Positions 3,124 to 61,872 of a stretch of 64,000 bases of DNA are shown piece after piece. The stretch is from positions 9,995 through 73,994 of the forward strand of contig JAZDGR010000052.1 in assembly GCA_043806735.1 (NCBI GenBank). Reading direction: 5' to 3'. Position numbers and translations under genes: made by a program. The notes beneath the pieces were generated by a model. The model saw nothing but the letters and a program-made list of their open reading frames with translations. It was not told the origin of the DNA and did no database searches. Position 1 is the first letter of the stretch; each line of letters begins with the position of its first letter. This stretch comes from a bacterium (GTDB lineage: Bacteria; Bacteroidota; Bacteroidia; Bacteroidales; FEN-979).

Positions 3124-3149
3124 GGGAATAGGTTATCGGGATGATAGGT

Positions 3150-3157: not shown

Positions 3158-3168
3158 ATAAAAATTCT

Positions 3169-3176
3169 TACTTTTG
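3169..3176 (+). promoter_or_regulatory. Bacteroidota -7 box TACTTTTG upstream of glnA
   Basis: Matches TAnnTTTG and ends 32 nt before the ATG at 3209. Confidence 0.45.
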
Positions 3177-3208
3177 CATCCCTGCTCGTACAAAGAAACC
3201 AGATTGCT

Positions 3209-4717: not shown

Positions 4718-4866
4718 ATCGGACGTTATGTCATGCAGAAGATCATCCGTTGCGTCATTTTGTCGCCAGAAAAGATTCCGGGTTCCGTTTTTCGCATTTG
4801 GTACATAAATTGAACCTGGCCGGTCAGAACAACAATAAAACAAAAAATATAAAGGAGGACTACATT

Positions 4867-5292: not shown

Positions 5293-5312
5293 ATTGATAC
5301 AAAACTTCCCCG

Positions 5313-6377: not shown

Positions 6378-6416
6378 ACCGGCGGGGAATCAGAAGTTAT
6401 ATACTCTTCAATTCTT

Positions 6417-6424
6417 CAAAATTA
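6417..6424 (-). promoter_or_regulatory. Bacteroidota -7 box (TAATTTTG on the minus strand) upstream of the PLD gene
   Basis: The plus strand reads CAAAATTA, 40 nt upstream of the ATG at 6377. Confidence 0.35.
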
Positions 6425-6475
6425 GGAAAACATTCCTGAATTTTCCAACGGATTCGCCAACGGAGCGAAATTTTG

Positions 6476-6483
6476 TAGCTTTG
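6476..6483 (+). promoter_or_regulatory. Bacteroidota -7 box TAGCTTTG upstream of yicC-like gene
   Basis: Matches TAnnTTTG and ends 16 nt before the ATG at 6500. Confidence 0.4.
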
Positions 6484-6499
6484 TTAAAAATTCACCTGT

Positions 6500-7381: not shown

Positions 7382-7941
7382 CCCAAAAAGCAATCATCGT
7401 ATCTGCCCCTTCGGGCGCCGGCAAATCTACGATTGTTCACCGCCTGATGCAGCGATTCGCCGAAATGGAATTCTCGGTTTCGGCCTGCACACGGCCTAAA
7501 CGGGGCGCCGAAGCGGAGGGGAAAGAGTATTATTTTCTTTCGGCGGAACCCTTCCTCGAAAAGGTCGCAAACGGCGAATTCGTTGAATGGGAGGAGGTGT
7601 ACCCCGGAAGTTACTACGGCACCCTGAAGTCGGAGCTGAACCGGATCTGGGGGCTCCGGAAAATCCCCGTATTCGACGTGGACGTGAAAGGCGGACTGAA
7701 CCTCAAAAAATATTTCGGCGCCAGTGCTCTTGCCTTTTTTATCCAGCCTCCTTCCCTCAAGATCCTCGAGCAACGCCTGCGCACGCGGAGTACCGAATCG
7801 GAAGAGAGTCTTCGGAAAAGGCTGAGCAAAGCGGAGTATGAAATGAGCTTTGCAGATAAATTTGATGAGGTTCTTGTGAATGATGACCTGGCACAGACGG
7901 TCGATCAGGCCATAGTATCTGTCAGAAATTTCCTGGAATGA
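7378..7941 (+). CDS. gmk: guanylate kinase
   Basis: 187 aa. P-loop SAPSGAGKST, plus YYFLS...F.E.A.V.G.YYGT-type core. Start overlaps the yicC stop by 4 nt. Confidence 0.9.
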   Translation: MTQKAIIVSAPSGAGKSTIVHRLMQRFAEMEFSVSACTRPKRGAEAEGKEYYFLSAEPFLEKVANGEFVEWEEVYPGSYYGTLKSELNRIWGLRKIPVFDVDVKGGLNLKKYFGASALAFFIQPPSLKILEQRLRTRSTESEESLRKRLSKAEYEMSFADKFDEVLVNDDLAQTVDQAIVSVRNFLE

Positions 7942-8540
7942 TGAAACCGGCTGCGACAAAAACCGGACTATTCTTCGGCTCCTTCAACCCGATCCACCTC
8001 GGGCACCTGATGATCGCCAGTTACATGGTGGAGTTTACGGATATTACCGAGGTATGGTTTATCCTCTCGCCGCACAACCCCCTGAAGGAAAAAGCCACGT
8101 TGCTTCCCGATGTAAACCGCCTTTATATGGTCAACGTGGCCGTGGAGGACGAACCGAAATTCCGCGCTTCCAACATCGAGTTTCACCTGCCCAAGCCCTC
8201 TTACACCATCGACACCCTCACCTGCCTGCAGGAACAATATCCCGGCAAGGAGTTCATCCTCCTGTCCGGATCCGACATTCTGCCTTCCTTCCACAAATGG
8301 AAAAACCACGAGCAGCTGCTGAACCTTTATAAATTCTATATCTACCCGCGACCGGATACCGCACCCAGTCCGTACGACACACACCCGTCCATTACCTTCC
8401 TCCCTGCCCCCCTGATCGAACTCTCTTCAAGCTTCATCCGGGAAGGCATCCGGGAGGGAAAGAATATGCTGTATTTCCTGCCTGCAAAAGTCTGGAAATA
8501 TATAGATGAGATGGGATTTTACAAAACTACACCGCCATGA
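7938..8540 (+). CDS. nadD: nicotinate-nucleotide adenylyltransferase
   Basis: 200 aa. GLFFGSFNPIHLGHL (HxGH-type nucleotidyltransferase motif) and ISSSFIREG-like ELSSSFIREG. Confidence 0.85.
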   Translation: MMKPAATKTGLFFGSFNPIHLGHLMIASYMVEFTDITEVWFILSPHNPLKEKATLLPDVNRLYMVNVAVEDEPKFRASNIEFHLPKPSYTIDTLTCLQEQYPGKEFILLSGSDILPSFHKWKNHEQLLNLYKFYIYPRPDTAPSPYDTHPSITFLPAPLIELSSSFIREGIREGKNMLYFLPAKVWKYIDEMGFYKTTPP

Positions 8541-9915
8541 TCGATTCGATCTCCTGTACCGTTTTCGGGATGGGTTTGCCAAGTACCCGGAATCCGGTGC
8601 GGGTAACGAGCACGTTGTCTTCTATGCGGATCCCGCCAAAATCCCTGTAGGTATCAACTATGTCGTAGTTGATGAATTGAGTGTGTTTTTTCTCTGATTT
8701 CCAACTATCGATGAGTTCGGGAATGAAGTAGATCCCTGGTTCGATGGTCATGACAAAGTGCTCTTGCAGACGTCGGCCAAAACGGAGGAATCCGAGGCCG
8801 AATTCTTTGCTCCGTTTGATCTCTTCGTCATAGCCGACAAAAGATTCTCCGAGTCCCTCCAGGTCATGCACATCCAGTCCGATCGGATGGCCTAGTCCGT
8901 GCGGGAAAAACATTGTGTGGGCTCCCTGGCTGACCGCCTCATCGGGATCGCCTTTCATGATCCCGATGTCCTTCAGCCCTTTCGCAATCTCCTTCGCAGC
9001 AAGCAGGTGAATATCCCTGAACGGGACACCCGGTTTGATGGCTTCGATGGTAGCTAAATTGGCAGCCAAAACAACCTTGTATATCCCCTCCTGCCGGTGG
9101 GAAAACTCCCCTCCAACCGGGACGGTTCGCGTAATGTCGCTAGCATAATGGTATTCTGATTCGCTTCCGGCATCGATGACGAGCATCCGGTCGGGCATCA
9201 ACATATTGCCATGATAATGGTTATGAAGGGTTTGTCCGTTGATGGTGAGGATGACCGGAAAAGAGACTCCGCAGGCGTTGGCGAGTGCAATTCCTTCGAT
9301 AGTCCCTGCAATTTCGCGTTCAATGGTCCCGGGTCGCGCCATCTTCATGGCGGTGGTCTGCATTATCCAGGCCACATCCACCATGCTTTCCATCTCCTGG
9401 ATCTCAAGGTTGTCTTTCTTCATCCGGAGTTTTATTACCCCTTTGATCAGGGATTCGGATACCTGATTTCGCACTTCGCTAAAGGGAATATCGAGCAGCT
9501 CTGAAATTTGGATGATCGTCTCGCCGCGATAGGGAGGAAGATAGTGAACTTTCCTCCCCCTGGCAACAGCTGCCCGCAGTATGCTTTCCAGCTCCGTCAT
9601 GGGGTAAGTTACTTCCACCCCTGCCTGGTTGCCCCGTTCCTTCATGGTAGGCTGCTTGCCTATCCAGATGATGTCGGTGATGTCGACGTCATTCCCGAAA
9701 AGGTAATCTTTCCCTCCATCCAGGTCGATGATCCCGGTCAGGTCGGGTTGGTCCAGTCCGAAAAAATAGAGAAAGTTGCTGTCCTGCCTGAATGAGTATG
9801 TATTGGCCGGATAGTTGAAGGATACCTCCTGGTTGCCCGGAAAAAACAACAAACCGCCGTCTACCTCATTGCGAAGCTTGTTTCTTCTGTCTTTGTAGAT
9901 GCTTGAAGGGAACAT
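8527..9915 (-). CDS. Xaa-Pro aminopeptidase (M24B family)
   Basis: 462 aa. M24 metal-ligand blocks: VIDAGSESEYHYASDITRT, FFPHGLGHPIGLDVHD, MTIEPGIY, IRIEDNVLVT. Confidence 0.85.
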   Translation of the reverse strand: MFPSSIYKDRRNKLRNEVDGGLLFFPGNQEVSFNYPANTYSFRQDSNFLYFFGLDQPDLTGIIDLDGGKDYLFGNDVDITDIIWIGKQPTMKERGNQAGVEVTYPMTELESILRAAVARGRKVHYLPPYRGETIIQISELLDIPFSEVRNQVSESLIKGVIKLRMKKDNLEIQEMESMVDVAWIMQTTAMKMARPGTIEREIAGTIEGIALANACGVSFPVILTINGQTLHNHYHGNMLMPDRMLVIDAGSESEYHYASDITRTVPVGGEFSHRQEGIYKVVLAANLATIEAIKPGVPFRDIHLLAAKEIAKGLKDIGIMKGDPDEAVSQGAHTMFFPHGLGHPIGLDVHDLEGLGESFVGYDEEIKRSKEFGLGFLRFGRRLQEHFVMTIEPGIYFIPELIDSWKSEKKHTQFINYDIVDTYRDFGGIRIEDNVLVTRTGFRVLGKPIPKTVQEIESIMAV

Positions 9916-9982
9916 AATTTAGATTGTTTTAAAATATGAATAAAATCCGTTTTCAGGTGTCGAAGGTACAAAAAATATCTTC

Positions 9983-9990
9983 TAACTTTG
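9983..9990 (+). promoter_or_regulatory. Bacteroidota -7 box TAACTTTG upstream of sdhC
   Basis: Matches TAnnTTTG and ends 25 nt before the ATG at 10016. Confidence 0.45.
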
Positions 9991-10015
9991 TCCATCATCT
10001 ATATAACCATTCACT

Positions 10016-10690
10016 ATGAGTTCTTCACTGTTGCACTTTTCATCCATCACCAAGAAGATCTGGATGGCTTTCCTCGGTTTATTCCTGATGGTTTTTCTGG
10101 TCGTTCACCTGGGCATCAACCTTTGCCTGTTGCGTGACGATGGCGGAGCCTGGTTTCACGAAGCGGCGCATTTCATGGGGACCAACTACATCGTAAAGGT
10201 CTTTGAAGTGATTTTGTTCGGGGGGTTCATCTTTCACATCTTGCTGGGGATTCTCCTGCAACTCCGCAACTGGATGTCGCGCCCGACGCGATACCGCATC
10301 AACAACCGTTCAACCACCCCGTTCCTGAGTAAATACATGATCTACTCCGGAGGGATCGTGCTGATTTTCCTGATCATCCATTTCATGAACTTCTATTTTA
10401 TCAGGCTGGGCTGGGTTGAAAGTCCGGTTGCCCCCTTGGAAGGCGGGGAGCCCGATTTTTATGAAACAGCCCGCTGGTTGTTCGTCCAACCTTTTTATTC
10501 GGTGCTTTACATCTTCCTGATGGTAGTCCTCGCGTTTCATCTAAACCATTCGTTTGGCGCAGTTTTTCAGACGTTCGGACTAGCTCATAAGACCTATACT
10601 CCGTACATCAAGGGATTTGGAACTTTCTATTCAATCGTGATCCCTGCTGGTTTCATTATCATACCGCTCTATTTTTTAATTTTTAGTTAG
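10016..10690 (+). CDS. sdhC: succinate dehydrogenase / fumarate reductase cytochrome b subunit (b558 type)
   Basis: 224 aa with about 5 TM helices carrying His residues. It lies directly upstream of the flavoprotein subunit. Confidence 0.8.
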
Positions 10691-10695
10691 TTCGT

Positions 10696-12633
10696 ATGGC
10701 TGAATTAAGTTCAAAAATTCCACAGGGTCCGGTGGCAGAAAAATGGACCCGGTATAAAGCTCATCAGAACCTGGTCAATCCTTCCAACAAACGGAAACTG
10801 GATGTACTTGTCGTGGGAACCGGTCTGGCCGGCGCTTCTGCGGCTGCCTCTCTCGGGGAGCTCGGGTTCAATGTCAAGATCTTCTGTTACCAGGATAGCC
10901 CTCGCCGGGCGCACAGCATTGCGGCCCAGGGCGGGATCAATGCGGCGAAAAACTATCCGAACGACGGCGACAGCATTTACAGGTTATATTACGACACAAT
11001 CAAGGGAGGCGACTACCGTTCGCGCGAAGCCAACGTATACCGGCTCGCGGAAGTGAGTAACGACATCATCGACCAGTGCGTGGCCCAGGGGGTTCCCTTT
11101 GCGCGCGAATACAGCGGGTTGCTGGAGAACCGTTCGTTTGGCGGAGCGCAGGTGTCTCGCACGTTTTATGCCCGCGGACAAAGCGGACAACAGCTGCTGC
11201 TCGGAGCTTACGGATCGCTGAGTCGCCAGATCAAGGAGGGTCAGGTCAAGATGTACAACCGGCATGAGATGATGGACGTAGTGATGGTGGATGGGAAAGC
11301 CCGTGGGATTATCGCGCGTGATCTGATCACCGGGGAACTGGAGCGTTATTTCGGCCATACCGTGATCATTGCTACCGGAGGGTATGGAAACGTTTTCTAC
11401 CTTTCCACCAATGCCATGGGTTCCAACACAAGCGCCATCTGGCAGATCTTCAAAAAAGGGGCTTTCTTTGCCAATCCCTGTTTTACCCAGATCCATCCCA
11501 CCTGCATCCCGGTTCACGGGGATTATCAGTCGAAGCTTACCCTGATGAGTGAGAGCCTCCGGAATGACGGCCGTATCTGGGTCCCGAAAAACAAGGAAAC
11601 TGCCGAAAAGGTCCGCAAAAGGGAACTAAAAGCCAACCAGGTCAAAGAGGAAGACAGGGATTATTTCCTCGAACGCAGATATCCTGCTTTCGGGAACCTG
11701 GTTCCGCGCGATGTAGCTTCACGGGCAGCCAAAGAGCGTTGCGATGCCGGGTACGGAGTTGGAGATACCGGGCTGGCCGTCTTCCTCGACTTTGCCGATT
11801 CCATCAAACGGCTCGGAAAGCACGTGATCGAAGAACGATATGGAAACCTTTTCCAGATGTATGAAAAGATCGTGGACGAAAACCCTTACGAAAATCCCAT
11901 GATGATCTTCCCGGCCGTCCACTATACCATGGGCGGGACCTGGGTTGATTACGAACTGATGAGCACCGTCCAGGGGCTGTTTGTTGCGGGAGAGGCCAAC
12001 TTTTCCGACCACGGCGCTAACCGTCTGGGGGCTTCTGCCCTGATGCAGGGGCTGGCCGACGGCTATTTCGTATTGCCTTATACCATCCAGAACTACCTCT
12101 CGGACCAGATTAATGTCCCCAGGATATCCACAGACAAACAGGAGTTTGCCGCTGCGGAACAAGCCGTCGCGGCAAGGCTTGAGAAACTGATGGTCATCAA
12201 GGGAACAAAATCGGTCGACCATTTTCACAAAGCCCTGGGAAAGATTATGTGGGAATATGTCGGAATGGGGAGAAACGCGGAGGGGTTAAAGAAGGCCATC
12301 GCCCTGATCAGGGAACTCCGGGAGGATTTCTGGAAAGAGGTAAAGATCCCCGGAAAAGCAAACGAAATGAATATCGAACTCGAGAAGGCCAACCGGGTAG
12401 CCGACTTCCTGGAACTCGGGGAGCTGATGGCCCTCGACGCCCTGGAGCGGAATGAAAGCTGTGGCGGCCATTTCCGCGAAGAGTTCCAGACCGAAGAAGG
12501 AGAGTGCTTGCGCGACGATAAAGATTATATGTATGTTGCCGCCTGGGAGTACAAAGGCGAAGGCGAATTCGTACTACATAAGGAGCCGCTTGTTTACGAA
12601 GAGATCGAGGTGAAGCAGCGGGTGTACAAATAG
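10696..12633 (+). CDS. sdhA: succinate dehydrogenase / fumarate reductase flavoprotein subunit
   Basis: 645 aa. FAD-binding motif [31 protein letters not shown], and the C-terminal [10 protein letters not shown]. Confidence 0.92.
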
Positions 12634-12661
12634 CGATTAGGGATTAGGGATTAGGGGTTAG
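12634..12661. repeat. heptanucleotide tandem array (GGATTAG)x4, left bracket of the four-helix-bundle cassette
   Basis: Reads cgattag ggattag ggattag gggttag and starts on the base after the sdhA TAG stop. Confidence 0.9.
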
Positions 12662-12669
12662 AATTGTAA

Positions 12670-13053
12670 ATGAATGTGCCAAAGAAAATAGTGTCGTATC
12701 ATGATTTGGAGGTCTGGAGGCGTGGCGTGGAATTAGTAAAACAGGTCTATAAGATAACATCTGGATTTCCAAAATCTGAGTTATATGGTATGACTTCTCA
12801 GATTCGCAGGGCTGCTATTTCATTTCCTGCAAATATCGCTGAGGGTTGGGGGCGGGAATCCTCAAAAAACTATATACAGTTTTTGCGAAATTCCAGAGGT
12901 TCTTTATTTGAATTGGATACATTGCTAATAATTACACAAGAACTCAGTTATATTTCAACCGATCAAAGTAATAATATCCGGAAGGAAATAAATGAGCTTG
13001 GAAAAATGTTAAACTCAATTATTCAAAAAATCAATGCAAGGATTTCGGAATAG
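12670..13053 (+). CDS. four-helix-bundle protein (23S rRNA intervening-sequence protein / Avd-like family)
   Basis: 127 aa. Family-typical text: YHDLEVWRRGVELVKQVYKITSGFPKSELYGMTSQIRRAAISFPANIAEGWGR...FLRNSRGSLFELDT. It is inserted between sdhA and sdhB. Confidence 0.85.
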   Translation: MNVPKKIVSYHDLEVWRRGVELVKQVYKITSGFPKSELYGMTSQIRRAAISFPANIAEGWGRESSKNYIQFLRNSRGSLFELDTLLIITQELSYISTDQSNNIRKEINELGKMLNSIIQKINARISE

Positions 13054-13070
13054 CTTTCTAGTTCCTCAAC

Positions 13071-13119
13071 CCTAATCGCTAATCCCTAATCCCTAATCCC
13101 TAATCCCTAATCGCTTATT
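13071..13119. repeat. heptanucleotide tandem array (CCTAATC)x6 plus one degenerate unit, right bracket, inverted relative to 12634-12661
   Basis: Reads cctaatc gctaatc cctaatc cctaatc cctaatc cctaatc gcttatt and ends on the base before the sdhB ATG (13120). CCTAATC is the reverse complement of GATTAGG. Confidence 0.9.
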
Positions 13120-13860
13120 ATGAAACTTACGCTCAAGATCTGGAGGCAAAAAGACGCTAAATCGAGAGGAAAATTTGTTTCCTACAGCATCGACAACATT
13201 TCACCAAACTGCTCCTTTCTGGAGATGCTCGACATCCTGAATGAACAGTTGATCGGGAAAGACGAGGAACCCGTGACCTTTGACCACGATTGCCGCGAAG
13301 GGATTTGCGGGATGTGCAGTTTGTACATCAACGGCCGTCCGCATGGTCCCGACGACGCCATCACCACCTGTCAGCTCCATATGCGGAAGTTCAAAGACGG
13401 CGAACCCATTGTTGTCGAACCTTGGCGGGCTAAGCCTTTTCCCGTGATCAAGGACTTGATCATTGACCGGACGGCCTTTGATAAGATCATTCAGGAGGCC
13501 GGCTACATTTCTGTGAGAACGGGAGGGACGCCGGATGCCAACAGCATCCTGATCAGCAAGGTCGATTCCGATCTGGCCATGGATGCTGCGGCTTGCATCG
13601 GGTGCGGCGCCTGCGTGGCCGCCTGTAAAAATGCTTCGGCCATGTTGTTTGTTTCAGCTAAGGTTTCCCAGTTTGCGCTTCTTCCTCAGGGGCAGGTGGA
13701 AGCAAAGGAACGTGTGAAAAAGATGGTGGCCAAGATGGACGAACTGGGGTTCGGGAACTGCACCAATACTTATGCCTGCGAAGTCGAATGTCCGAAGCTG
13801 GTTTCCCGCTCCAACATCGCCCGGATGAACCGGGAGTTTATTTTTGCCAAGATTCTTTAG
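13120..13860 (+). CDS. sdhB: succinate dehydrogenase / fumarate reductase iron-sulfur subunit
   Basis: 246 aa with three Cys clusters: [33 protein letters not shown]. Confidence 0.92.
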
Positions 13861-13968
13861 CCCCTAAATCCCCACTTGCCCCCAAACCCCCTAAAGGGGG
13901 CTTATTCCCGCTTCGCGGGATTATCCTCCTGAAAAGGAGGAGTAAGTCCCCTTCAGGGGATTTAGGGG
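13861..13968. repeat. 108-bp nested-palindrome element (terminal inverted repeat CCCCTAAATCCCC / GGGGATTTAGGGG)
   Basis: Starts on the base after the sdhB stop. A 13-bp perfect terminal inverted repeat encloses the mini-hairpins ccccctaaaggggg, cccgcttcgcggg, cctcctgaaaaggagg and ccccttcagggg. Confidence 0.85.
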
Positions 13969-13983
13969 CAAACGAGACAAGAC

Positions 13984-15096
13984 ATGAAATTCATTGATAT
14001 CCAGACAGACAAAACAATCAAGCAGAAGTTGATCCAAACCATTCAGGATCAGCGAGTCAGCCATGCTCAGTTGTTTTATGGACCCGAAGGGTCAGGAAAA
14101 CTGGCCCTGGCCATCGCATATGCGCAGATGATTAATTGCACTGCCCCTAAATCCCCTGACTTACCCCCCGGCCCCCTAAAGGGGGAGGTTTCCCCCCAAG
14201 GGGGAAGTAAGTCCCCTTTAGGGGATTTAGGGGTGGACTCCTGCGGCATCTGCCCCTCCTGCATTCAGTTCCAGAAACTGGCCCATCCCGACCTCCACTT
14301 CTTTTATCCTACCGCTACCACGAAACAGGTTTCATCCAAGCCTTCCAGCAAACATTTCATCGAAGAGTGGAGGAAGTTTCTCCTGGAAAATAACTACCGG
14401 GTGAACCTGGCCGGGTGGTACGATTTCATCGGGATTGAAAACAAACAGGGGACGATCTATGCCGACGATGCCAACGAGATCAACCGCATCCTGAGTTACA
14501 AGAGCTATGAGTCGGAATACAAGGTCGTCATTATCTGGATGATCGAAAAACTGTTTCATGCAGCCGCGCCCAAGTTGCTCAAGATCCTCGAAGAACCACC
14601 CGAAAAGACACTGTTCATCCTGGTTTCCGACAACCCCGATCAGGTCATTCCGACCCTTGTATCCCGTTGCCTTCCGGTGAGGATTCCAAAGATTCAACCA
14701 GAGGAGACGCGGTTGACTTCGAAAGAGGATCAGGTTCTGTTTGAGACCTTCCGGAAATGGATGCGGATCTGTTTTGCCAACAACATTCCCGAACTAATCG
14801 GTTTTGCATCTGACGTGGGGAAAATCGGCAGGGAAAAGCAAAAAAGCCTTCTTCAGTACGGACTGGACCTTTCGGGAAACGCGCTCGCTCTCCGGCATGG
14901 GTTTTTCCGGGGATCAGCTTCCGGAGGCGAAGAATCGGAGTTCATAAAAAAGTTTTCGCCGTTCCTTTCCGAAACAAAACTGCTTCCCTTTTATACCCTG
15001 CTCAACTCCTCCATCTACCACATCGAACGCAACGCCCATGCGCCGACGCTCTTTCTTGATCTGTCGTTGAAGTTCACCGGGCTGCTCAAAAGATAA
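13984..15096 (+). CDS. holB: DNA polymerase III delta-prime subunit (clamp-loader), carrying a 30-codon repeat-derived insert
   Basis: 370 aa. It has GPEGSGK, the zinc-module-like CGICPSC...HPDLHFFYP and the SRC motif LVSRCL. An extra segment PKSPDLPPGPLKGEVSPQGGSKSPLGDLGV sits just before the Cys module. Confidence 0.8.
   Translation: MKFIDIQTDKTIKQKLIQTIQDQRVSHAQLFYGPEGSGKLALAIAYAQMINCTAPKSPDLPPGPLKGEVSPQGGSKSPLGDLGVDSCGICPSCIQFQKLAHPDLHFFYPTATTKQVSSKPSSKHFIEEWRKFLLENNYRVNLAGWYDFIGIENKQGTIYADDANEINRILSYKSYESEYKVVIIWMIEKLFHAAAPKLLKILEEPPEKTLFILVSDNPDQVIPTLVSRCLPVRIPKIQPEETRLTSKEDQVLFETFRKWMRICFANNIPELIGFASDVGKIGREKQKSLLQYGLDLSGNALALRHGFFRGSASGGEESEFIKKFSPFLSETKLLPFYTLLNSSIYHIERNAHAPTLFLDLSLKFTGLLKR
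14144..14233. repeat. 90-bp nested-palindrome element, same family as 13861-13968, in frame inside holB
   Basis: It has the same 13-bp termini (cccctaaatcccc ... ggggatttagggg), an inner inverted pair gacttac/gtaagtc, and the mini-hairpins ccccctaaaggggg and ccccccaaggggg. Length is 90 nt, i.e. 30 codons. Confidence 0.85.
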
Positions 15097-15102
15097 TTTT
15101 TG

Positions 15103-15110
15103 TACATTTG
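15103..15110 (+). promoter_or_regulatory. Bacteroidota -7 box TACATTTG upstream of the PSP1 gene
   Basis: Matches TAnnTTTG and ends 17 nt before the ATG at 15128. Confidence 0.4.
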
Positions 15111-15127
15111 CGTAGATTTCCTGAACT

Positions 15128-16249
15128 ATGGACGAACCCGAAGCAAAACCGACTCCGCTTGAGTCCAATCCATTTTTGAGCCGGGGCTGCGTGGAGCCAC
15201 CGCGAATCGGCCATAAAAATGACGGGATCTTCAGCCACCGGTGTAGCAAGTTTGACACCTTCAATTGGCTGGAAAAGTTGCCGGTATCCGCCGGGTATAC
15301 TCCTCCCGATGTGGTGGAAGTCAGGTTTAAAAACAGCCGCAAAGATTTTTTCCGGACAACGCCCGACATCGAATTGAGAGTCGGAGACATCGTAGCCGTG
15401 GAGGCATCGCCCGGGCACGACATCGGGATCGTCAGCATGACCGGCGAAATTGTCCGGTTGCAGATGCGAAACAGGGGGATCCGGCCCGCTTCGGAAGAGA
15501 TCCGCAAAGTATACCGGCGGGCACGCATCAGTGATGTGGAAAAGTGGATCGCGGCGGTGGAGTTGGAAAATTCCACCATGTTCAAATCCCGTGAGATGGC
15601 CGAAAAGCTGGGGCTGTCGATGAAGATCAACGACGTGGAATACCAGGGGGATAACACCAAAGCCATTTTCTACTATACCGCCGACGACCGGGTCGACTTC
15701 CGGGAGCTGATCAAGGTGCTGGCCGAGGAGTTCAAGGTGCGAATCGAAATGAAGCAGATCGGCGCCAGGCAGGAAGCCAGCCGGCTTGGCGGAATCGGTT
15801 CGTGCGGAAGGGGACTCTGTTGCTCGACCTGGTTGAGCCATTTTCACTCCGTGACTACGCAGGCCGCCCGGGTCCAGCAACTCTCCATGAATCCTCAAAA
15901 ACTGGCCGGACAATGCGGCAAGCTGAAATGCTGCCTCAACTACGAATATGAAACCTATGTGGATGCCCTGAAGGATTTTCCCGATACCGATACGGTTCTG
16001 AAAACCAGGAAGGGTGACGCTTTTCATCAGAAGACCGACATTTTCAACAAGCTGATCTGGTACTCCTACGCCGGGACTACCAGTAACCAGATGGCCATTC
16101 CTGTCGATCAGGTGATCCAGGTCATCGAACAAAATAAAAAAGGGATCTTTCCCGAAAACCTGGAAGATCTCTCCAATAGTACCGAACAAAAAACCGACTT
16201 CGAAAACGGGAACGGACCAGATGACCTGAGTTACCTTGATCATTCCTAG
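15128..16249 (+). CDS. PSP1 domain protein (RicT/YaaT-like)
   Basis: 373 aa. PSP1 core: GDIVAVEASPGHDIGIV...AIFYYTADDRVDFRELIKVLAEEFKVRIEMKQIGARQEA...GSCGRGLCCSTW...CGKLKCCLNYE. Confidence 0.8.
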   Translation: MDEPEAKPTPLESNPFLSRGCVEPPRIGHKNDGIFSHRCSKFDTFNWLEKLPVSAGYTPPDVVEVRFKNSRKDFFRTTPDIELRVGDIVAVEASPGHDIGIVSMTGEIVRLQMRNRGIRPASEEIRKVYRRARISDVEKWIAAVELENSTMFKSREMAEKLGLSMKINDVEYQGDNTKAIFYYTADDRVDFRELIKVLAEEFKVRIEMKQIGARQEASRLGGIGSCGRGLCCSTWLSHFHSVTTQAARVQQLSMNPQKLAGQCGKLKCCLNYEYETYVDALKDFPDTDTVLKTRKGDAFHQKTDIFNKLIWYSYAGTTSNQMAIPVDQVIQVIEQNKKGIFPENLEDLSNSTEQKTDFENGNGPDDLSYLDHS

Positions 16250-54741: not shown

Positions 54742-55737
54742 ATGAAGATTCTGGTAATCCGGTTCAGTTCTATCGGCGACATCGTCCTGACGACCCCTAT
54801 TGTCCGGTGCCTCAAGGAGCAGTTGCCTAACGTGGAGATCCATTACCTCACCAAGAAGCAATATATCCCGGTCCTTCAGGCAAATCCATATATTACTAAG
54901 ATTCAGCTTTACAAAGAGAACTTCCGGGAGCTGGTTCCGAAGCTGAAAGCCGAACGGTTTGACCGGATCATTGATCTGCATAAAAACATCCGTTCCCATT
55001 ACATCCGGTTTTGTTTACGGAAACCTGCCACTTCATTTCCCAAAGTTAATTTTCAGAAGTGGCTGATGACCCGGTGGAAGATTGACCTGCTGCCCCCTAT
55101 TCACCTTGTAGACAGGTATTTTAAGGCAGTGGAACCGTTGGGCATCCGGAATGACGGTAACGGACTGGATTATTTTTTACCTGATCCGGGACAATTTTCC
55201 GTTTACGAGAGATTTCCCGATCTCACAGGTAGGTTCATCGCGATTGCTATCGGCGCCCGGCATGCTACCAAAATCTATCCGGCCGCCAAGGTGTCTGAAC
55301 TGTGCGATCTGTTGCCTTTGCCTGCGATTCTGCTGGGAGGAAAAGAGGATATGGCACGCGGGGAAGAGATCATCAGGATAACCCGCGCAAAGGTCTTCAA
55401 TGCCTGCGGACTGCTCACCCTCAACGAATCGGTTTCGGTAATCTTCCAGGCTGTTCAGGTAATTTCCAACGACACCGGGATGATGCACATCGCGGCAGCC
55501 CTGAAGAAGCCGGTGATCAGCCTTTGGGGAAACACTATTCCCGGATTCGGCATGTACCCGTATTTCCCCGAAGAGTGCAGCCATCTTTCGACCCTGGTTG
55601 AAGTGAAGAGCTTGTCCTGTCGTCCCTGCAGCAAGCTGGGGTACCCAGAATGTCCGAAAAAACACTTCGATTGCATGGAGAAGATCGACCCGAAGGCTGT
55701 TGTGGAGGCAGTGAGGCTGGTAAACAGTGAACAATGA
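54742..55737 (+). CDS. family 9 glycosyltransferase (LPS heptosyltransferase-like)
   Basis: 331 aa. MKILVIRFSSIGDIVLTTP, the C-terminal half ISNDTGMMHIAAAL and PCSKLGYPECP. The last residues and the stop codon lie inside the CAGTGAA array. Confidence 0.8.
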   Translation: MKILVIRFSSIGDIVLTTPIVRCLKEQLPNVEIHYLTKKQYIPVLQANPYITKIQLYKENFRELVPKLKAERFDRIIDLHKNIRSHYIRFCLRKPATSFPKVNFQKWLMTRWKIDLLPPIHLVDRYFKAVEPLGIRNDGNGLDYFLPDPGQFSVYERFPDLTGRFIAIAIGARHATKIYPAAKVSELCDLLPLPAILLGGKEDMARGEEIIRITRAKVFNACGLLTLNESVSVIFQAVQVISNDTGMMHIAAALKKPVISLWGNTIPGFGMYPYFPEECSHLSTLVEVKSLSCRPCSKLGYPECPKKHFDCMEKIDPKAVVEAVRLVNSEQ

Positions 55738-55766
55738 ACAGTGAACAGTGAATAGTGAACAGTGAC
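55725..55766. repeat. heptanucleotide array (CAGTGAA)x6 with variants
   Basis: Reads cagtgaa caatgaa cagtgaa cagtgaa tagtgaa cagtgac. It spans the GT9 stop (55735-55737) and ends 3 nt before the tatD ATG. Confidence 0.9.
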
Positions 55767-56555: not shown

Positions 56556-56587
56556 AGGCACCAAGGCACAGAGGCACAGAGGCACAA
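56556..56587. repeat. octanucleotide array (AGGCACAG)x4 with variants
   Basis: Reads aggcacca aggcacag aggcacag aggcacaa and starts 7 nt after the tatD stop. Confidence 0.85.
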
Positions 56588-56669: not shown

Positions 56670-56716
56670 CAATCCAAAAAAAACAGAGAATAACGAAAAG
56701 TGAAAAACGAATAACT

Positions 56717-56744
56717 ATTCACTATTCACTGTTCACTGTTCACT
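56717..56744. repeat. heptanucleotide array (RTTCACT)x4, inverted relative to 55725-55766
   Basis: Reads attcact attcact gttcact gttcact (gtttag). TTCACTG is the reverse complement of CAGTGAA. It ends 5 nt before tRNA-Ser. Confidence 0.9.
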
Positions 56745-56749
56745 GTTTA

Positions 56750-56837
56750 GGAGAGATGTCCGAGTGGTCTAAGGAGCACGCCTGGAGAGCGTGTAATCGC
56801 CAAAAGTGGTTCATGGGTTCGAATCCCATTCTCTCCG
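56750..56837 (+). tRNA. tRNA-Ser (anticodon GGA)
   Basis: Folded by hand. Acceptor GGAGAGA/TCTCTCC, anticodon stem CACGC/GCGTG with loop CTGGAGA, long variable arm, T-arm ATGGG-TTCGAAT-CCCAT, discriminator G. 88 nt. Confidence 0.9.
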
Positions 56838-56843
56838 CCCTCC

Positions 56844-56921: not shown

Positions 56922-58133
56922 ATGAACATCGCCTGGCGAAAAGAAGTCTTGCTGGATATTCTCGAAATCCGGGGACGCATTGATGGGCTGACTGCTGCTG
57001 AAATCAAGCGGGCATTTGATCAGGCTGTGAGCGAAGGACAGCGGCATCTCATGGTCGATTTCACCGGGGTCTCCTACATGAGCAGTGCCGGATTACGGAT
57101 TATTCTTCAAACTCATAAATCGCTGAACGTCATTGGAGGTGAACTGATCCTTTTTTCCATTCCGCCTCCGGTTGCCGAGATCTTCAGGGTAAGCGGCCTG
57201 GCCCCGATGCTGCATATTTTTCAGGACCTTGCTGCCCTGAGGAAACATCTGAATGTAGCCGCTGACGATGAAACAGGTACGAATGTAGAATTTGAAGGGA
57301 TCTCGTTTGAAAAAAGGGTGATTTCCGGTGAATCCGGGTATCTTTTCCCCTATGGTTCTCCGGAAAAATTGATGGATTCTTCGTATTCAACCTCCGATAT
57401 TATCCGGGTCGATCAGTCAGAAATCGCCTATGGCGCAGGCATTTCCGCCCTGGGTGACGACGTGGAAGATTTCAGGGATTTGTTCGGTGAGTCGGTTTTT
57501 CTAAATCATCATTTCTTCTCCTACCCTGCCGTGAGGAGACCCACAGTCGATTATTCATACTTTACCAGGGACTTCAGTCATAAAATTAATTTCCTCCATG
57601 GCTTTGGGATACACGGAAACTTCTCCGGTATTCTTCATTTTGGATCGACGGAAGAACGTATTACGCTATCAAGACTGGCCAAAGCAGCCGGAAACATTTC
57701 CCGGTCGAATGTTTTTGGCATGGTACTACTGGCTTTGAGCGGGGGAATTCTCGGGATGCACCTGAAGCGTTCGCCTGTCATTGAGAACCAATCCGGGGGA
57801 AAACAGATCCTTGCACCAGATAGTTTCGATACATGGATGAGTTATCCGCTCGAGGAAGAGGCCATTCATAAAACAGTTGTGGGTGCCGGAATTGTTGTTA
57901 AAGAGCCCGGGAAACTTACACCTGAATGGAAAAGATTATTCCCGAAAGAGGGCGATCTGCATTTCCATGCCGCCGTTTTTGAAAATGGATTGTGGAGCAA
58001 CAAAATGACTGAATTTGAACAGGAGCTGGAACGGGTACTCAAGGATTTTGAAGTGGAGAAAGTGGTACACTTGCTGCCGGCCTCGGTACTTTTAAGCGGT
58101 TTTATCGGTGTAATTAACCTGGAAAATATCTGA
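56922..58133 (+). CDS. STAS-domain protein with ~290-aa C-terminal domain of unknown function
   Basis: Start moved to MNIAWRKEVLLDILEIRGRIDG, because the tracked start at 56859 lies inside the terminator. The STAS / anti-sigma-antagonist pattern is LMVDFTGVSYMSSAGLRIIL...GGELILFSIPPPVAEIFRVSGL. Its stop overlaps the permease ATG by 1 nt. Confidence 0.7.
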   Translation: MNIAWRKEVLLDILEIRGRIDGLTAAEIKRAFDQAVSEGQRHLMVDFTGVSYMSSAGLRIILQTHKSLNVIGGELILFSIPPPVAEIFRVSGLAPMLHIFQDLAALRKHLNVAADDETGTNVEFEGISFEKRVISGESGYLFPYGSPEKLMDSSYSTSDIIRVDQSEIAYGAGISALGDDVEDFRDLFGESVFLNHHFFSYPAVRRPTVDYSYFTRDFSHKINFLHGFGIHGNFSGILHFGSTEERITLSRLAKAAGNISRSNVFGMVLLALSGGILGMHLKRSPVIENQSGGKQILAPDSFDTWMSYPLEEEAIHKTVVGAGIVVKEPGKLTPEWKRLFPKEGDLHFHAAVFENGLWSNKMTEFEQELERVLKDFEVEKVVHLLPASVLLSGFIGVINLENI

Positions 58134-60970
58134 TGGATCTTTGGATTGGAGCGCTTAACCTGGGTTTTCTTTATGCCTTTATGGCAATCGGAACCTTTAT
58201 TACCTATAAACTCTATTCTTTTCCCGATATCACCATCGACGGAACCTTCACCACCGGCGCTGCTGTCGCTTCCATTCTGATCGTCGACGGCTGGAATCCT
58301 TTCCTGGTCATCCCGGTCGCATTTTCTGTTGGTTCCCTCGCAGGCTTTGTAACCGGTTTTATCCATACCCGGTTCAAGATCGAAGGCTTACTTTCGGGGA
58401 TCCTGGTCATGACCGGGTTATATTCGGTAAACCTGCACATCATGGGAAAATCGAATATTCCCCTGATGAACAGTCCTACATTTGTTTCGATCATTTCTGC
58501 TTCGAATCCAGGATTCAATCCCGAACTATGGGCGTGTATTTTCCTGGCTATGATCATCGTCGTTTTCTGGATGCTGGTTTCCCTCTTCCTGCGTACTGAT
58601 TTTGGGCTGACCATGCGAGCGACCGGGAATAATCCGGTCATGATCGCAGCCCAGGGCGTCTCCGTCGGCAGGATGAAGATCTTTGGGATCTCCCTGTCCA
58701 ATGGTTTTGTGGGAATATCCGGAGCCATGGTGGCACAGTACCAGGGCTTTGCCGACATCGGGATGGGTATCGGTTCCATCATATTCAGTCTTGCCTCTGT
58801 CATCATTGGGGAAGCGGTGTTGCGCCACCGCTCCATGTTCGTAAAGATACTGGGCGTCATCCTGGGATCCATCATCTTCCGTTTTGCAGTTGCTTTTGCC
58901 CTGTATCTGGGAATGAATCCCAACGACCTCAAGATTATTACCGCTATATTCGTGCTCCTGACCATTATCACCACCCATGCGATCAGTGTAAAGGAAGGAG
59001 GTGCATGGATACGATTCCTGCGCCGGAATAAATGGATCTTACGGCTGGTAACCATTGCTTCTGTCGTGGGAGTCATCACCTGGATTTTCATACAGGTGCG
59101 TTCCCCGTTTTCCGCGGAAGAAAAAAAGACCAAAATAGGACTGATCCTGGCAAACCAGAGTTCCCTTTTGACCAATACCCGGAATGGGTTTTATGATGAA
59201 CTAAAGAAACTGGGCTATATCCCCGGGGTAAACTGTGAGATAGATGAATTGAATGCCGAAGGCGATATCCCTACCAACAAGACCATCGTGGATCATTTCC
59301 TCTCCGAAAATGTTGATGTGTTTGTGTCGGTGTCGACGGCTTCCACTCAGGCGGTACTGAACAAAGTGAAAGATAAACCGGTTGTTTTTGCAACCGTGGC
59401 CAATCCTTTCATTATTGGCGCGGGGAAAACCGAATCCGATCATCTTCCTAATGTGACGGGAGTCTATGGAACTGCTCCAAGCATGGAGTTGTTAAAAATT
59501 TTCGTCCAATTATATCCGGGCAAACAAAAGATCGGCACTATCTATAATCCAGCTTATCCGAATACGAAAGTCAATCTCGGTGATTTCCTCCATGCCTTGA
59601 AATCATTTCCACAGATAGAGCTTGAAGAAGTCGCTGTTTCGGGAACCAGTGAAGTGCTTCAGGCAGCCCAATCGCTTGCGTCAAAAAACATAAAAGCCTT
59701 CGTCCTGATCAACGATCTCACGGTGTTCAATTCCCTGGAGTCGGTAGTAAAAGTATCCCGGCAGAGAAAAATTCCGATCTTCACCAACGATGCCGAACGG
59801 CTGAATGACGGTGTTCTTCTGGTTTACGGGTATGAGTACTACGTAAGCGGAATGCAGGCGGCTCATCTTGTCGACCGCATTTTGAAAGGAGAAAGTCCGG
59901 CAAGTATCCCGTTTGAGAAATACAAAATCATTACCTATGGGGTGAATTATGATGTGGCAAAAGAATTTGGAATCAGCCTTCCTGAATCTATCCGGAAAGC
60001 AGCCGGTGCGAGTGTGATCAATGGGAAATTAATCAGGCCGCCCCTGATCCTGCCGGGGGATATCCGCTCATCAAAAACCAGGAGAGTCGCCCTCTTCCAG
60101 TTCAGCAGTAATTCACTGATCGAACGGGCTGTTCAGGGATTTAAGGATCAGGCCAGAAAAGAAAACCTTGTCAATTCCGCTGCCGTGGTATTTTCCGAAT
60201 TCAATGCCCATGGCGATTATAGTGTCGGACAGGCCATCGCAAAAAACATTGTCGATAAAGAATACGATTATATTGTTACTTTTTCTACTGTTGCCCTGCA
60301 GATCATGGCTAACAACAACAAAAAGATCCCGCATGTTTTTTGTGCAGTGACCGATCCTGTCCGTGCAGGGGTAGCAAAAAGCGCCACGGATCATCAGCCG
60401 AATCTTACCGGTATCGCCACTCCCCAGCTTGTAGGTGCAACCGTTGAGCTCATGAAGAAGCTGCTTCCGAACGCCAGGAAAGTCGGAATTATCTGGAACA
60501 CCAGTGAGGTCAACTCGCAGATTTGTACCGAGAAAGCGAGGGAAGCCTGCAAAAAACAAGGATTCCAGCTGATCGAACGAACCATCACCAATCTGAATGA
60601 CCTCGACGATGCAGTGAATTCCATTACTACGGCCGGGATAGATATTTTCTTTATTTCGGGGGATGTAATGATCTCCCAGGTTATTCCGCAACTGGCAAAA
60701 AAAATGACCGAAAAAAACATTCCGTTTTTCAGCAATACTGCCGACGATATCCGTTCCGGAACCTTGGTGAGTCTCGGCGCCGATTACTATGAGGTCGGGG
60801 AAAAGGCAGCGGAAGTTTTTAAAAAAATCCTGGGGGGAATACCTCCAAATGATGTGCCGGTTGAAACATTCGTCCCGGCGGCGTTTGGGATAAACCTGGG
60901 TCTTGCCAAAAAATATAGGATCCCTGTTCCCGATGCACTGGTGAAACAGGCTAAAATTATTATTCGCTGA
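58133..60970 (+). CDS. ABC transporter permease (LivH/BPD_transp_2 type) fused to two tandem ABC_sub_bind-type substrate-binding domains
   Basis: 945 aa. Residues 1-~300 are polytopic permease, followed by one extra TM helix (ILRLVTIASVVGVITWIFIQV). Two SBP-like modules follow, starting KIGLILANQSSLL... and RRVALFQFSSNSLIERAVQGF... Confidence 0.7.
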   Translation: MDLWIGALNLGFLYAFMAIGTFITYKLYSFPDITIDGTFTTGAAVASILIVDGWNPFLVIPVAFSVGSLAGFVTGFIHTRFKIEGLLSGILVMTGLYSVNLHIMGKSNIPLMNSPTFVSIISASNPGFNPELWACIFLAMIIVVFWMLVSLFLRTDFGLTMRATGNNPVMIAAQGVSVGRMKIFGISLSNGFVGISGAMVAQYQGFADIGMGIGSIIFSLASVIIGEAVLRHRSMFVKILGVILGSIIFRFAVAFALYLGMNPNDLKIITAIFVLLTIITTHAISVKEGGAWIRFLRRNKWILRLVTIASVVGVITWIFIQVRSPFSAEEKKTKIGLILANQSSLLTNTRNGFYDELKKLGYIPGVNCEIDELNAEGDIPTNKTIVDHFLSENVDVFVSVSTASTQAVLNKVKDKPVVFATVANPFIIGAGKTESDHLPNVTGVYGTAPSMELLKIFVQLYPGKQKIGTIYNPAYPNTKVNLGDFLHALKSFPQIELEEVAVSGTSEVLQAAQSLASKNIKAFVLINDLTVFNSLESVVKVSRQRKIPIFTNDAERLNDGVLLVYGYEYYVSGMQAAHLVDRILKGESPASIPFEKYKIITYGVNYDVAKEFGISLPESIRKAAGASVINGKLIRPPLILPGDIRSSKTRRVALFQFSSNSLIERAVQGFKDQARKENLVNSAAVVFSEFNAHGDYSVGQAIAKNIVDKEYDYIVTFSTVALQIMANNNKKIPHVFCAVTDPVRAGVAKSATDHQPNLTGIATPQLVGATVELMKKLLPNARKVGIIWNTSEVNSQICTEKAREACKKQGFQLIERTITNLNDLDDAVNSITTAGIDIFFISGDVMISQVIPQLAKKMTEKNIPFFSNTADDIRSGTLVSLGADYYEVGEKAAEVFKKILGGIPPNDVPVETFVPAAFGINLGLAKKYRIPVPDALVKQAKIIIR

Positions 60971-60972
60971 AT

Positions 60973-61785
60973 ATGATCAGGATCCAAGAGTTAAATAAAA
61001 AATTCAATGCCGGGACCCTGGATGAGGTCATTGCCCTGGATCATATCTCGCTGGAAGTTCGTGAGCATGAATTTCTGACGGTGATCGGAACCAATGGATC
61101 CGGGAAATCGACCCTGCTTAACGCAGTGGCGGGAAATATCCTCCCCGATAGCGGGACCATTGAAATAGATGGCGAAGATGTTACCCGGAAACAGGATTAT
61201 CAACGGGCGAAAAATATATCCAGGGTCTTTCAAAATCCTTTTAGCGGAACGGCGTCTGACATGACTCTTGCTGAAAACCTTCTCATGGCCTGGTTGCGGG
61301 GAAGACCCCATTATCCGAAGATCAGCCTGAACAGGATGGGGCGTGACTTCTTCCGGAAACAGTTGGCTTCCCTGGAAATGAATCTTGAAGACCGGCTGGA
61401 TAATATCATGGGCACCTTTTCAGGGGGGCAGCGGCAGGCAATCACTTTACTGATGGCCGTCATGCAAAAACCAAACGTGCTGCTGCTCGATGAGCATACG
61501 GCTGCACTCGATCCGAAAACTGCCTCCCAGGTTCTGAAACTGACCCAGAAGTTTGTGACCGAATCCAGGTTGACGACCCTCCTGGTGACGCATTCCATGA
61601 AGCAGGCGCTGGAGCTGGGAACCCGTACCCTGATGATGCATCACGGGCAGATCATTGACGATATCCCGGCTGCCGAAAAAAAACACCTCACCGTGGAAGA
61701 CCTTCTCAATAAATTTGAGGATATCAGGAAACGGGAAAAGCTGACTCCGGAGTTGATCGAACAGTTAAAAAATCAATACGCGTAA
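60973..61785 (+). CDS. ABC transporter ATP-binding protein
   Basis: 270 aa. Walker A GTNGSGKST, signature FSGGQRQA, Walker B LLLDEHTAALD, H-loop VTHS. Confidence 0.9.
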   Translation: MIRIQELNKKFNAGTLDEVIALDHISLEVREHEFLTVIGTNGSGKSTLLNAVAGNILPDSGTIEIDGEDVTRKQDYQRAKNISRVFQNPFSGTASDMTLAENLLMAWLRGRPHYPKISLNRMGRDFFRKQLASLEMNLEDRLDNIMGTFSGGQRQAITLLMAVMQKPNVLLLDEHTAALDPKTASQVLKLTQKFVTESRLTTLLVTHSMKQALELGTRTLMMHHGQIIDDIPAAEKKHLTVEDLLNKFEDIRKREKLTPELIEQLKNQYA

Positions 61786-61797
61786 AATCGTTTATTG

Positions 61798-61872
61798 TGG
61801 GAACTACAGGATTCGAACCTGTGGCCTCCTGCTTGTAAGGCAGGCGCTCTGAACCAACTGAGCTAAGCTCCC
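61798..61872 (-). tRNA. tRNA-Val (anticodon TAC)
   Basis: The reverse complement is GGGAGCTTAGCTCAGTTGGTTCAGAGCGCCTGCCTTACAAGCAGGAGGCCACAGGTTCGAATCCTGTAGTTCCCA. It gives a clean cloverleaf with anticodon loop CTTACAA. 75 nt. Confidence 0.9.

Follow-up and report, generated by a model that had tools for sequence, protein, structure and literature searches.

We examined a window of 64,000 nucleotides from a Bacteroidales genome of the FEN-979 lineage (GenBank assembly GCA_043806735.1, contig JAZDGR010000052.1, positions 9,995 to 73,994, forward strand), in which three genes form a compact operon between two tRNA genes. The first gene encodes a protein with an N-terminal STAS domain and a separate C-terminal domain (CTD), which we refer to as STAS-CTD. 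The second encodes an ATP-binding cassette (ABC) permease fused to two tandem substrate-binding domains (SBDs), and the third encodes the corresponding ATPase (Table 1). A sequence-only reading of this locus had described a STAS protein, a permease fusion, and an ATPase with these lengths, and the open reading frames (ORFs) are as claimed. The overlap that it reported between the STAS stop codon and the permease start codon (TGATG) is visible in the junction ATC TGA TGG, where the two genes share 1 nt, and 2 nt separate the permease gene from the ATPase gene. The longest ORF of the STAS-CTD gene opens at 56859, upstream of the ATG at 56922 chosen here as its start.

Table 1. Features of the STAS-CTD/importer operon and its edges, in window coordinates
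Feature	Position	Strand	Length or residues	Evidence or remark
tRNA-Ser(GGA)	56750-56839	+		ARAGORN; upstream edge of the unit
STAS-CTD gene	56922-58133	+	403 aa	start is the ATG matching homologue N-termini
STAS domain, SpoIIAA/RsbV type	56958-57233	+	residues 13-104	Pfam STAS, E 5e-20
Ser55, phosphorylatable-Ser equivalent	codon 57084-57086	+	residue 55	motif YMSSAGLR
CTD	57273-58130	+	residues 118-403	ALDC/PTD012-like double beta-sheet fold (predicted)
CTD signature codons E190, D210, W305	57489-57491, 57549-57551, 57834-57836	+	residues 190, 210, 305	conservation in 186 relatives
CTD signature codons H347, H349, H383	57960-57962, 57966-57968, 58068-58070	+	residues 347, 349, 383	conservation in 186 relatives
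Permease-SBD-SBD gene	58133-60970	+	945 aa	ORF list
Permease core, BPD_transp_2 (LivH/RbsC type)	58133-58990	+	residues 1-286	Pfam E 2e-28 and hydropathy profile
Extra anchor transmembrane helix	59036-59092	+	residues 302-320	Kyte-Doolittle score 2.29
Substrate-binding domain 1, PF04392, membrane-proximal	59120-60052	+	residues ~330-640	Pfam; PDB 3lkv, E 2e-35
Substrate-binding domain 2, PF04392, distal	60068-60967	+	residues ~646-945	Pfam best stretch 652-941; PDB 6hni, 3lkv, 3lft
ABC ATPase gene	60973-61785	+	270 aa	ORF list; Pfam ABC_tran
tRNA-Val(TAC)	61797-61872	-		ARAGORN; downstream edge of the unit

The STAS-CTD protein

The STAS domain proposed for the first gene is supported by both sequence profiles and predicted structure. 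PF01740 scores 71.6 bits on this domain (cut-off 22.6) and TIGR00377 scores 67.6 bits (cut-off 53.45), and the first 110 residues of an AlphaFold2 (AF2) model of the full-length protein (pLDDT 90.1, pTM 0.74) match SpoIIAA, RsbV, and TM1442 at Foldseek TMt values of 0.78-0.87. A family profile compared against the PDB retrieves the same three proteins at E values of 1e-19 to 1e-14, while MlaB (7ch8) is reached only at 3e-4. The earlier reading had cited MlaB-MlaF as a precedent for a STAS accessory of an ABC transporter, but the domain itself is of the SpoIIAA/RsbV type rather than the MlaB type. S54 and S55 are kept in 185 of 186 relatives. Alignment of YMSSAGL with the SpoIIAA motif FMDSSGL puts Ser55 at the position of phospho-Ser58. 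Full-length relatives of STAS-CTD number 71 after clustering at 90%.

The CTD had been called unrecognized, and no Pfam or NCBIfam model matches it (residues 110-403), including PF03306 (AAL_decarboxy) at E values up to 0.1. Its predicted fold, however, is recognizable. Foldseek with an AF2 model of the CTD alone (pLDDT 91.0, pTM 0.91) retrieves 13 chains of alpha-acetolactate decarboxylase (ALDC), with E values of 5e-6 to 5e-4 and TMt of 0.53-0.66. Human PTD012 is matched at E 5e-5, and much weaker DUF296-type matches come next, a pattern that is characteristic of the AF0104/ALDC/PTD012-like superfamily. As modeled, the CTD is an ALDC/PTD012-like domain. Residues E190, D210, H347, H349, and H383 are conserved at 98-99% in the 186 relatives, and the signature residues are also kept in paralogues away from any transporter. 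The zinc ligands of ALDC are three His and a C-terminal Glu, with an additional Glu being catalytic (PMC9090609), and the PDB entry title of PTD012 refers to a zinc-containing fold. The three His, Glu, and Asp of the CTD (His3/Glu/Asp) form a well-motivated candidate for a metal site. H280 and K282 were also considered as counterparts of ALDC H191 and H193 and were dropped, as H280 is conserved in just 38% of the relatives.

A CTD profile finds 752 representatives at 50% identity in a library of 1.84 billion proteins, which defines a sizeable uncharacterized family with a conserved His3/Glu/Asp site. Nearly all of the top 150 of these representatives are proteins of ~400 aa with the CTD at ~115-400, and all 10 remote members tested carry an N-terminal STAS domain. 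Judged from these sequences, the CTD occurs essentially only in fusion with STAS.

A possible role for such a protein would be primarily enzymatic: STAS-CTD could act on the imported compound as a metalloenzyme of the ALDC/PTD012 superfamily, within a transport metabolon or simply as a pathway neighbor, with the STAS domain serving only for regulation or localization. PTD012 has esterase activity. Both of the two-domain structural relatives, ALDC and PTD012, are zinc-site proteins, with ALDC an established enzyme (PMC9090609), and an invariant His3/Glu/Asp set is typical of a catalytic site; the strict operon linkage described below would also suit a 1:1 relation with the transporter. We nevertheless consider this improbable. 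ALDC Thr55 and Arg142 have no conserved counterpart in the sole recurrent alignment, itself nonsignificant, and paralogues with the same site sit by flagellin genes without transporter or pathway genes. The tight linkage to PP2C and RsbW-type genes also favors signaling over catabolism.

A permease with tethered binding domains and its ATPase

An HMM (hidden Markov model) search of the 945-aa protein with Pfam bore out the proposed fusion of BPD_transp_2 (residues 7-275, E 2e-28) with two PF04392 stretches (E 3e-100) in one ORF. The loop that follows the permease core (residues 287-301) contains five Lys or Arg residues and is predicted to be cytoplasmic in a Kyte-Doolittle scan. Together with the extra helix, this loop places the binding domains beyond the cytoplasmic membrane, on the periplasmic side. 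Domain 1 is 60-75% identical to the single binding domain of one-domain relatives and corresponds to the domain that those relatives keep. Domain 2, present in only a subset of relatives, is 56-64% identical to the distal domain of six of them (L008, L011-13, L021, and L022) and only ~25-30% identical to domain 1. The low identity between the two domains and their high identity to counterparts elsewhere indicate old paralogues rather than a recent duplication, and the two probably differ in specificity.

The same architecture recurs in independent assemblies with homologues of 945-949 aa at 53-75% identity, including proteins of 945 aa at 75% (P0214), 947 aa at 70% (P0215), and, in Ignavibacteriales, 945 aa at 53% (P0269). 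This recurrence excludes a frameshift or assembly artifact, and the long ORF is a genuine fusion. Searches with the 945-aa query (E ≤ 1e-20) found at least 612 clusters of fused permeases, the best matches all combining BPD_transp_2 with PF04392, from sources that include Bacteroidota, Ignavibacteriales, Aminicenantes, and Omnitrophota. Lengths of ~650, 945, 1250, and 1563 aa reflect the presence of one, two, three, and four binding domains in tandem, respectively. The combination had been called unusual; it is undescribed in the literature that we searched, but this number of clusters shows that it is not rare in metagenomes. Four tandem PF04392 domains occur on permeases of 1549-1568 aa (L090 at 6001-10695, P0216, P0220-P0226, and P0229), and such a permease, as a homodimer, would carry eight binding domains per transporter.

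The ATPase matches ABC_tran (E 4e-30) and retains its motifs, with Walker A at residue 39, FSGGQ at 149, Walker B at 169, and the H-loop at 206. The intact motifs point to transporter competence. Its length is exactly 270 aa in all 35 loci compared, and it is ~50% identical to counterparts from canonical operons of a binding protein, a permease, and an ATPase, such as one on a Variovorax plasmid in which a 264-aa ATPase follows the binding protein and permease genes and there is no STAS gene. A C-terminal extension of the ATPase was considered as a marker of STAS linkage and dropped, since the canonical ATPases of 264 aa align to residues 1-250/260.

By Pfam, all three component families of TrpXYZ-like transporters (PF04392, BPD_transp_2, and a single ATPase) lie within this one operon, and the importer belongs to the PF04392/BPD_transp_2/COG1101-type family that includes TrpXYZ. 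The TrpX equivalog model NF041285 scores 343.9 against a cut-off of 390, even when summed over the two domains. TrpX contacts its ligand through T108, A127, T129, D152, and N233 (PMC9382623). These positions hold T, T, A, G, and L in domain 1 and T, A, T, T, and V in domain 2, such that both D152 and N233 are replaced in both domains. Solved PF04392 proteins have L-Trp, L-Tyr, or L-Phe as ligands (PMC10443332). With the score below its cut-off and these contacts replaced, aromatic amino acids are not predicted as ligands, and the imported substrate is probably not Trp, Tyr, or Phe.

Genomic context of the operon

Related loci were found with a 20-sequence alignment, and those encoding a plain STAS domain without the CTD (L035-L085) were set aside. 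The synteny sample comprises 40 loci that encode the full STAS-CTD protein, some of them near-duplicates. The STAS-CTD gene adjoins this type of permease and ATPase in 37 of the 40, across at least five phyla, and the survey thus upholds the expectation that the STAS gene is conserved beside the transporter. It lies directly upstream of the fused permease and the ATPase in every Bacteroidota, Ignavibacteriota, Thermodesulfobacteriota, Smithella, and Aminicenantes locus, as well as in the four-domain locus L090, and this position holds with one, two, three, or four binding domains. The order in Verrucomicrobiota is a 667-aa tandem SBD-SBD protein, STAS-CTD, an unfused permease (309-313 aa), and the ATPase; in some members of this phylum, STAS-CTD stands directly before the unfused permease. 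The Verrucomicrobiota order indicates that the STAS-CTD gene remains within the operon despite rearrangement.

This linkage, kept with one to four binding domains and after rearrangement, argues for a dedicated partnership, and the stop/start overlap and the near-exclusive fusion of the CTD to STAS count in the same direction. An ordinary anti-sigma-factor antagonist could in principle have come to stand beside an unrelated and equally ordinary ABC importer by chance. Database names of STAS-CTD homologues go no further than “STAS domain-containing protein” or “anti-anti-sigma factor,” and in the window the gene directly follows a tRNA gene with no partner-switching genes near. Chance adjacency is, however, effectively refuted by the synteny survey, in which the linkage spans phyla and survives changes in gene order. 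The STAS-CTD and permease genes are also translationally coupled, and STAS-CTD, with its conserved second domain, is four times as large as an anti-sigma antagonist; we therefore regard fortuitous placement as extremely improbable.

Remote paralogues of STAS-CTD (24-26% identity) are found in other settings. One in Kiritimatiellae lies among flagellin and FliW genes (L032, 747-2183), one of the same type occurs in Verrucomicrobiota (L033, ~7983-9400), and a third stands beside genes for EF-G and a phosphopantetheinyl transferase (L029, 6664-8067). Among the related loci, many of those from Chloroflexota (L036, L037, L040, and L043-L082; Ardenticatenaceae, Promineifilaceae, and Leptofilum) have two STAS matches ~850 nt apart on one strand, a spacing suggestive of either single proteins or gene pairs in which an uncharacterized stretch of ~180 aa lies between two STAS domains.

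Genes for protein phosphatases and kinases recur around the operon. A PP2C gene lies within the fetched flanks of 31 of the 37 transporter-linked loci. A gene for a receiver domain fused to SpoIIE (REC-SpoIIE, a PP2C) is located directly upstream of STAS-CTD in L004-L025, L027, and L086-88 and is often preceded by a gene for a 296-aa HisKA/HATPase_c kinase (HK296). Aminicenantes have, upstream, a small STAS, an HATPase_c_2 (RsbW-like) kinase, an NMT1-type protein, and a dCache-HAMP-SpoIIE phosphatase, the last directly upstream of STAS-CTD. In Ignavibacteriota, REC-SpoIIE, an RsbW-like kinase, and a small STAS are encoded ~5 kb upstream, and an ECF sigma gene lies downstream, after the ATPase gene in L001. 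Verrucomicrobiota loci carry RsbW-like genes and a SpoIIE gene beside the ATPase gene, and in the four-domain locus a REC-SpoIIE gene lies downstream in the opposite orientation. RsbW-like kinase genes are present at L001/L002, L031, L089, and L091. At L031 (Verrucomicrobiota), a 292-aa ORF (6035-6913, + strand) is an apparent fusion of an RsbW-like kinase with STAS, placed directly after the ATPase gene and facing the SpoIIE gene. The conserved Ser55 and the linked PP2C and RsbW-type genes suggest that the association of STAS with the ATPase is switched on and off by phosphorylation.

The same neighbors raise the alternative of a receptor role for the transporter, as a transceptor or co-sensor. 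The SBDs and the transport cycle would report an external ligand, and STAS-CTD would be the output, captured or released by the ATPase and, when free, engaging a partner-switching cascade of an RsbW-like kinase, a small STAS, and a sigma factor or other effector. Idle MalK sequesters MalT in a comparable way, and PstB and PhoU inform PhoR. Complete partner-switching sets (small STAS, HATPase_c_2 kinase, and PP2C) and sensor kinases do flank the operon in Ignavibacteriota and Aminicenantes, and the ECF sigma gene of L001 would suit such an output. The Bacteroidota kinase upstream is short and consists, by Pfam, of HisKA and HATPase_c only, which suggests input from a partner, and the paralogues in nontransport contexts (flagellin and FliW) would fit a general signaling protein. 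Against this, the ATPase motifs are intact, and the one to four divergent binding domains are reminiscent of nutrient scavenging of the GlnPQ kind. Neither the Bacteroidota loci nor the window shows a consistent linkage to a transcription factor or sigma gene, and in the loci examined no sigma/anti-sigma pair regularly accompanies STAS-CTD. Sensing and regulated import can also coexist. We find a receptor as the main function rather unlikely, although less so than an enzyme.

The window itself is an exception to this organization. The closest relatives (76% and 69% identity) have the full operon, in the order histidine kinase, REC-PP2C, STAS-CTD, permease-SBD, and ATPase, within a conserved neighborhood, while the window has only the last three genes, and the tRNA-Ser gene occupies the slot that holds the REC-PP2C phosphatase gene in most relatives. 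The conserved Bacteroidota neighborhood (L004-L011, L014-L025, L027, and L086-L088; for example, L086 at 2571-5663 and 11996-15731) includes, upstream, a gene for an nSTAND1-WD40 protein and, downstream, genes for a GNAT acetyltransferase, two Ddl-like ATP-grasp enzymes, and a KamA-like radical-SAM lysine 2,3-aminomutase, all of them encoded on the strand opposite to the operon. The downstream set looks like a beta-lysine-type pathway. None of these nSTAND1-WD40, GNAT, Ddl-like, or KamA-like neighbors is found in the window.

The genes around the unit in the window are housekeeping genes, encoding TatD, a GT9 heptosyltransferase, an MBL-fold protein, and a TPR histidine kinase. The heptosyltransferase gene fits lipopolysaccharide and a diderm envelope and is consistent with the host having been described as diderm. 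Tandem arrays of the heptamer TTCACTG flank tatD in inverted orientation, at 55723-55765 (- strand, ~6 copies) and 56714-56747 (+ strand, ~5 copies), the second ending 3 nt short of tRNA-Ser; a two-unit probe gives seven matches, against 0.01 expected by chance. A tandem 8-mer, AGGCACAG, is repeated 3.9 times at 56556-56586, directly 3' of the tatD stop codon. The start of the window holds a CheB methylesterase domain (604-1176, - strand) and an adjoining receiver-like match (146-592, - strand). This match, the only one of its kind that the window yielded, bears no relation to the module's PP2C regulators.

Proposed regulation and comparison with known systems

The sequence-only reading had inferred a regulated importer of unknown substrate, and this remains the best account of the locus after the analysis. 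With about even confidence, we propose that the operon encodes an ABC importer under the control of a STAS subunit that can be switched by phosphorylation and bears a metal site, and we leave the substrate of the importer unassigned. The permease and the ATPase would presumably each be homodimeric, with two nonidentical binding domains tethered to each permease C-terminus via the extra membrane helix and STAS-CTD as a dedicated cytoplasmic subunit. Modeled on MlaB-MlaF, unphosphorylated STAS would dock on the ATPase and set its activity. An RsbW-type kinase would phosphorylate Ser55 and release STAS, and a signal-controlled PP2C, linked to REC or Cache domains in the relatives, would dephosphorylate it and restore docking. 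The ALDC/PTD012-like domain may bind a metal and a small cytoplasmic ligand through His3/Glu/Asp and thereby provide metabolic feedback. We are somewhat less confident of the broader proposition that a partner-switching phosphorelay targets the importer ATPase, rather than a sigma factor, via a phospho-STAS subunit whose CTD reads a cytoplasmic metabolite. Conversely, it is possible that the importer feeds its transport state into a partner switch.

Several observations weigh against this proposal. No relatives of SpoIIE (PP2C), RsbW-like kinases, or HK296 were found by tblastn in the 64-kb window, which leaves the conservation of Ser55 as the sole basis for a phospho-switch in this genome, and the Bacteroidota loci contain no adjacent Ser kinase gene. 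Canonical PF04392/BPD_transp_2 operons function without any STAS gene. The remote paralogues L029, L032, and L033 have no adjoining transporter, and the STAS-CTD family is therefore not intrinsically a transporter subunit. As for the metal site, comparison of the CTD with an ALDC alignment (5xne, 6inb, and 5yho) in hhalign gave probabilities of 0.1-1.4%, nonsignificant for the whole domain and for its N- and C-terminal halves. Sequence alignments between CTD and ALDC are likewise nonsignificant and disagree on where the His residues fall, and any positional match between the His triad and the zinc-binding residues of ALDC is accordingly conjectural.

STAS domains connect anion transporters, the Mla lipid transporter, and sigma partner switches, and the way in which they control transporters is still poorly understood. 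The literature that we searched contains no description of a STAS-ALDC-like protein, of its link to a transporter, or of PF04392 fused to a permease, although tethered binding domains have already been acknowledged for “some Gram-negative bacteria” (PMC8025302). The fused permeases add a new transporter family to those with tethered binding domains, and a single permease can carry as many as four. The module is widespread in uncultured lineages, mostly from sediment, lake, and groundwater, and its carriers include Bacteroidota (Prolixibacteraceae), Ignavibacteriota, Aminicenantes, Verrucomicrobiota, and Thermodesulfobacteriota. Draconibacterium and Prolixibacteraceae relatives (L020) are among those that have it. 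It allows the phospho-regulation of an ABC importer by a STAS subunit to be tested directly, with the phospho-Ser kept, PP2C linked in most relatives, and RsbW-like kinases in some. If our proposal is correct, the module would provide the first case in which an accessory STAS subunit gates an ABC importer through reversible phosphorylation of a Ser, and the CTD would be a previously unrecognized branch of the ALDC/PTD012 zinc fold that reads a cytoplasmic metabolite. If the converse is true, it would be the first importer to feed its transport state into a partner switch.

The closest functional parallel is MlaB-MlaF, whose genes likewise pair a cytoplasmic STAS protein with an ABC transporter. 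ATPase function there depends on the STAS protein, and the phospho-Ser-equivalent residue matters. MlaB is needed for MlaFE assembly, and its T52A substitution, at the residue equivalent to Ser55, abolishes MlaFEB ATPase activity, phosphorylation being only hypothesized (PMC5016091). However, MlaB consists of just one STAS domain (~100 aa) and belongs to an MCE-type lipid system that has neither binding proteins nor a linked kinase or phosphatase. STAS-CTD has a second domain of 286 aa and a STAS domain nearer to SpoIIAA/RsbV, and it accompanies a solute importer of another permease family. The locus is also no mlaFEDCB-type operon, as its permease is BPD_transp_2 rather than MlaE and no MlaD is encoded beside STAS-CTD. 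By analogy, the module may function like MlaB-MlaF yet is no member of that system.

Partner switches (SpoIIAA/SpoIIAB/SpoIIE, RsbV/RsbW/RsbU, and Bacillus cereus RsbK-RsbY) share the STAS fold and the phospho-Ser loop, and relatives of the module have PP2C with REC or sensor domains and HATPase_c_2 kinases nearby. Phosphotransfer from B. cereus RsbK to RsbY (REC-PP2C) is a precedent for two-component control of a PP2C (PMC9912610). Unlike in these switches, the lasting neighbors of STAS-CTD are an ABC transporter and not sigma and anti-sigma factors, an extra metal-site-like domain is present, and the window copy has no kinase or phosphatase genes.

The permease recalls Lactococcus GlnPQ, in which two nonidentical tandem binding domains are tethered to a homodimeric translocator, giving four per complex (PMC8025302). 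The window permease also bears two tandem, different, covalently fused binding domains. Those of GlnPQ belong to another binding-protein family (polar amino acid) and are N-terminal to a BPD_transp_1-type permease in a Gram-positive host. In the window, by contrast, PF04392 domains are C-terminal to BPD_transp_2 via an added helix in a diderm, and relatives have up to four of them. TrpXYZ-type systems (TrpX of Streptococcus suis and S. pneumoniae, Clostridioides difficile CD0873, and Vibrio cholerae 3LKV) have the same three component families, but they lack a STAS gene, and their binding proteins are free-standing lipoproteins or periplasmic proteins.

The CTD shares with ALDC and human PTD012 a two-sheet fold, and its three His and acidic residues recall the His3/Glu zinc site of ALDC. 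It differs in being ~50 residues longer and always fused to STAS, and its HxH is followed by the next His after 34 residues rather than 11 as in ALDC. MetNI and ModBC are importers with a cytoplasmic regulatory domain on the ATPase. The proposed role of STAS-CTD resembles theirs (the C2 domain of MetNI) and that of the CBS domains of OpuA, in that import is gated by a cytoplasmic module that binds a ligand or signal and works through the ATPase. The documented gating signals of OpuA are ionic strength and c-di-AMP (PMC7673798). In all three, however, the module is fused to the ATPase and binds its ligand directly, whereas STAS-CTD is a polypeptide of its own that differs in fold and contains a phosphorylatable STAS domain.

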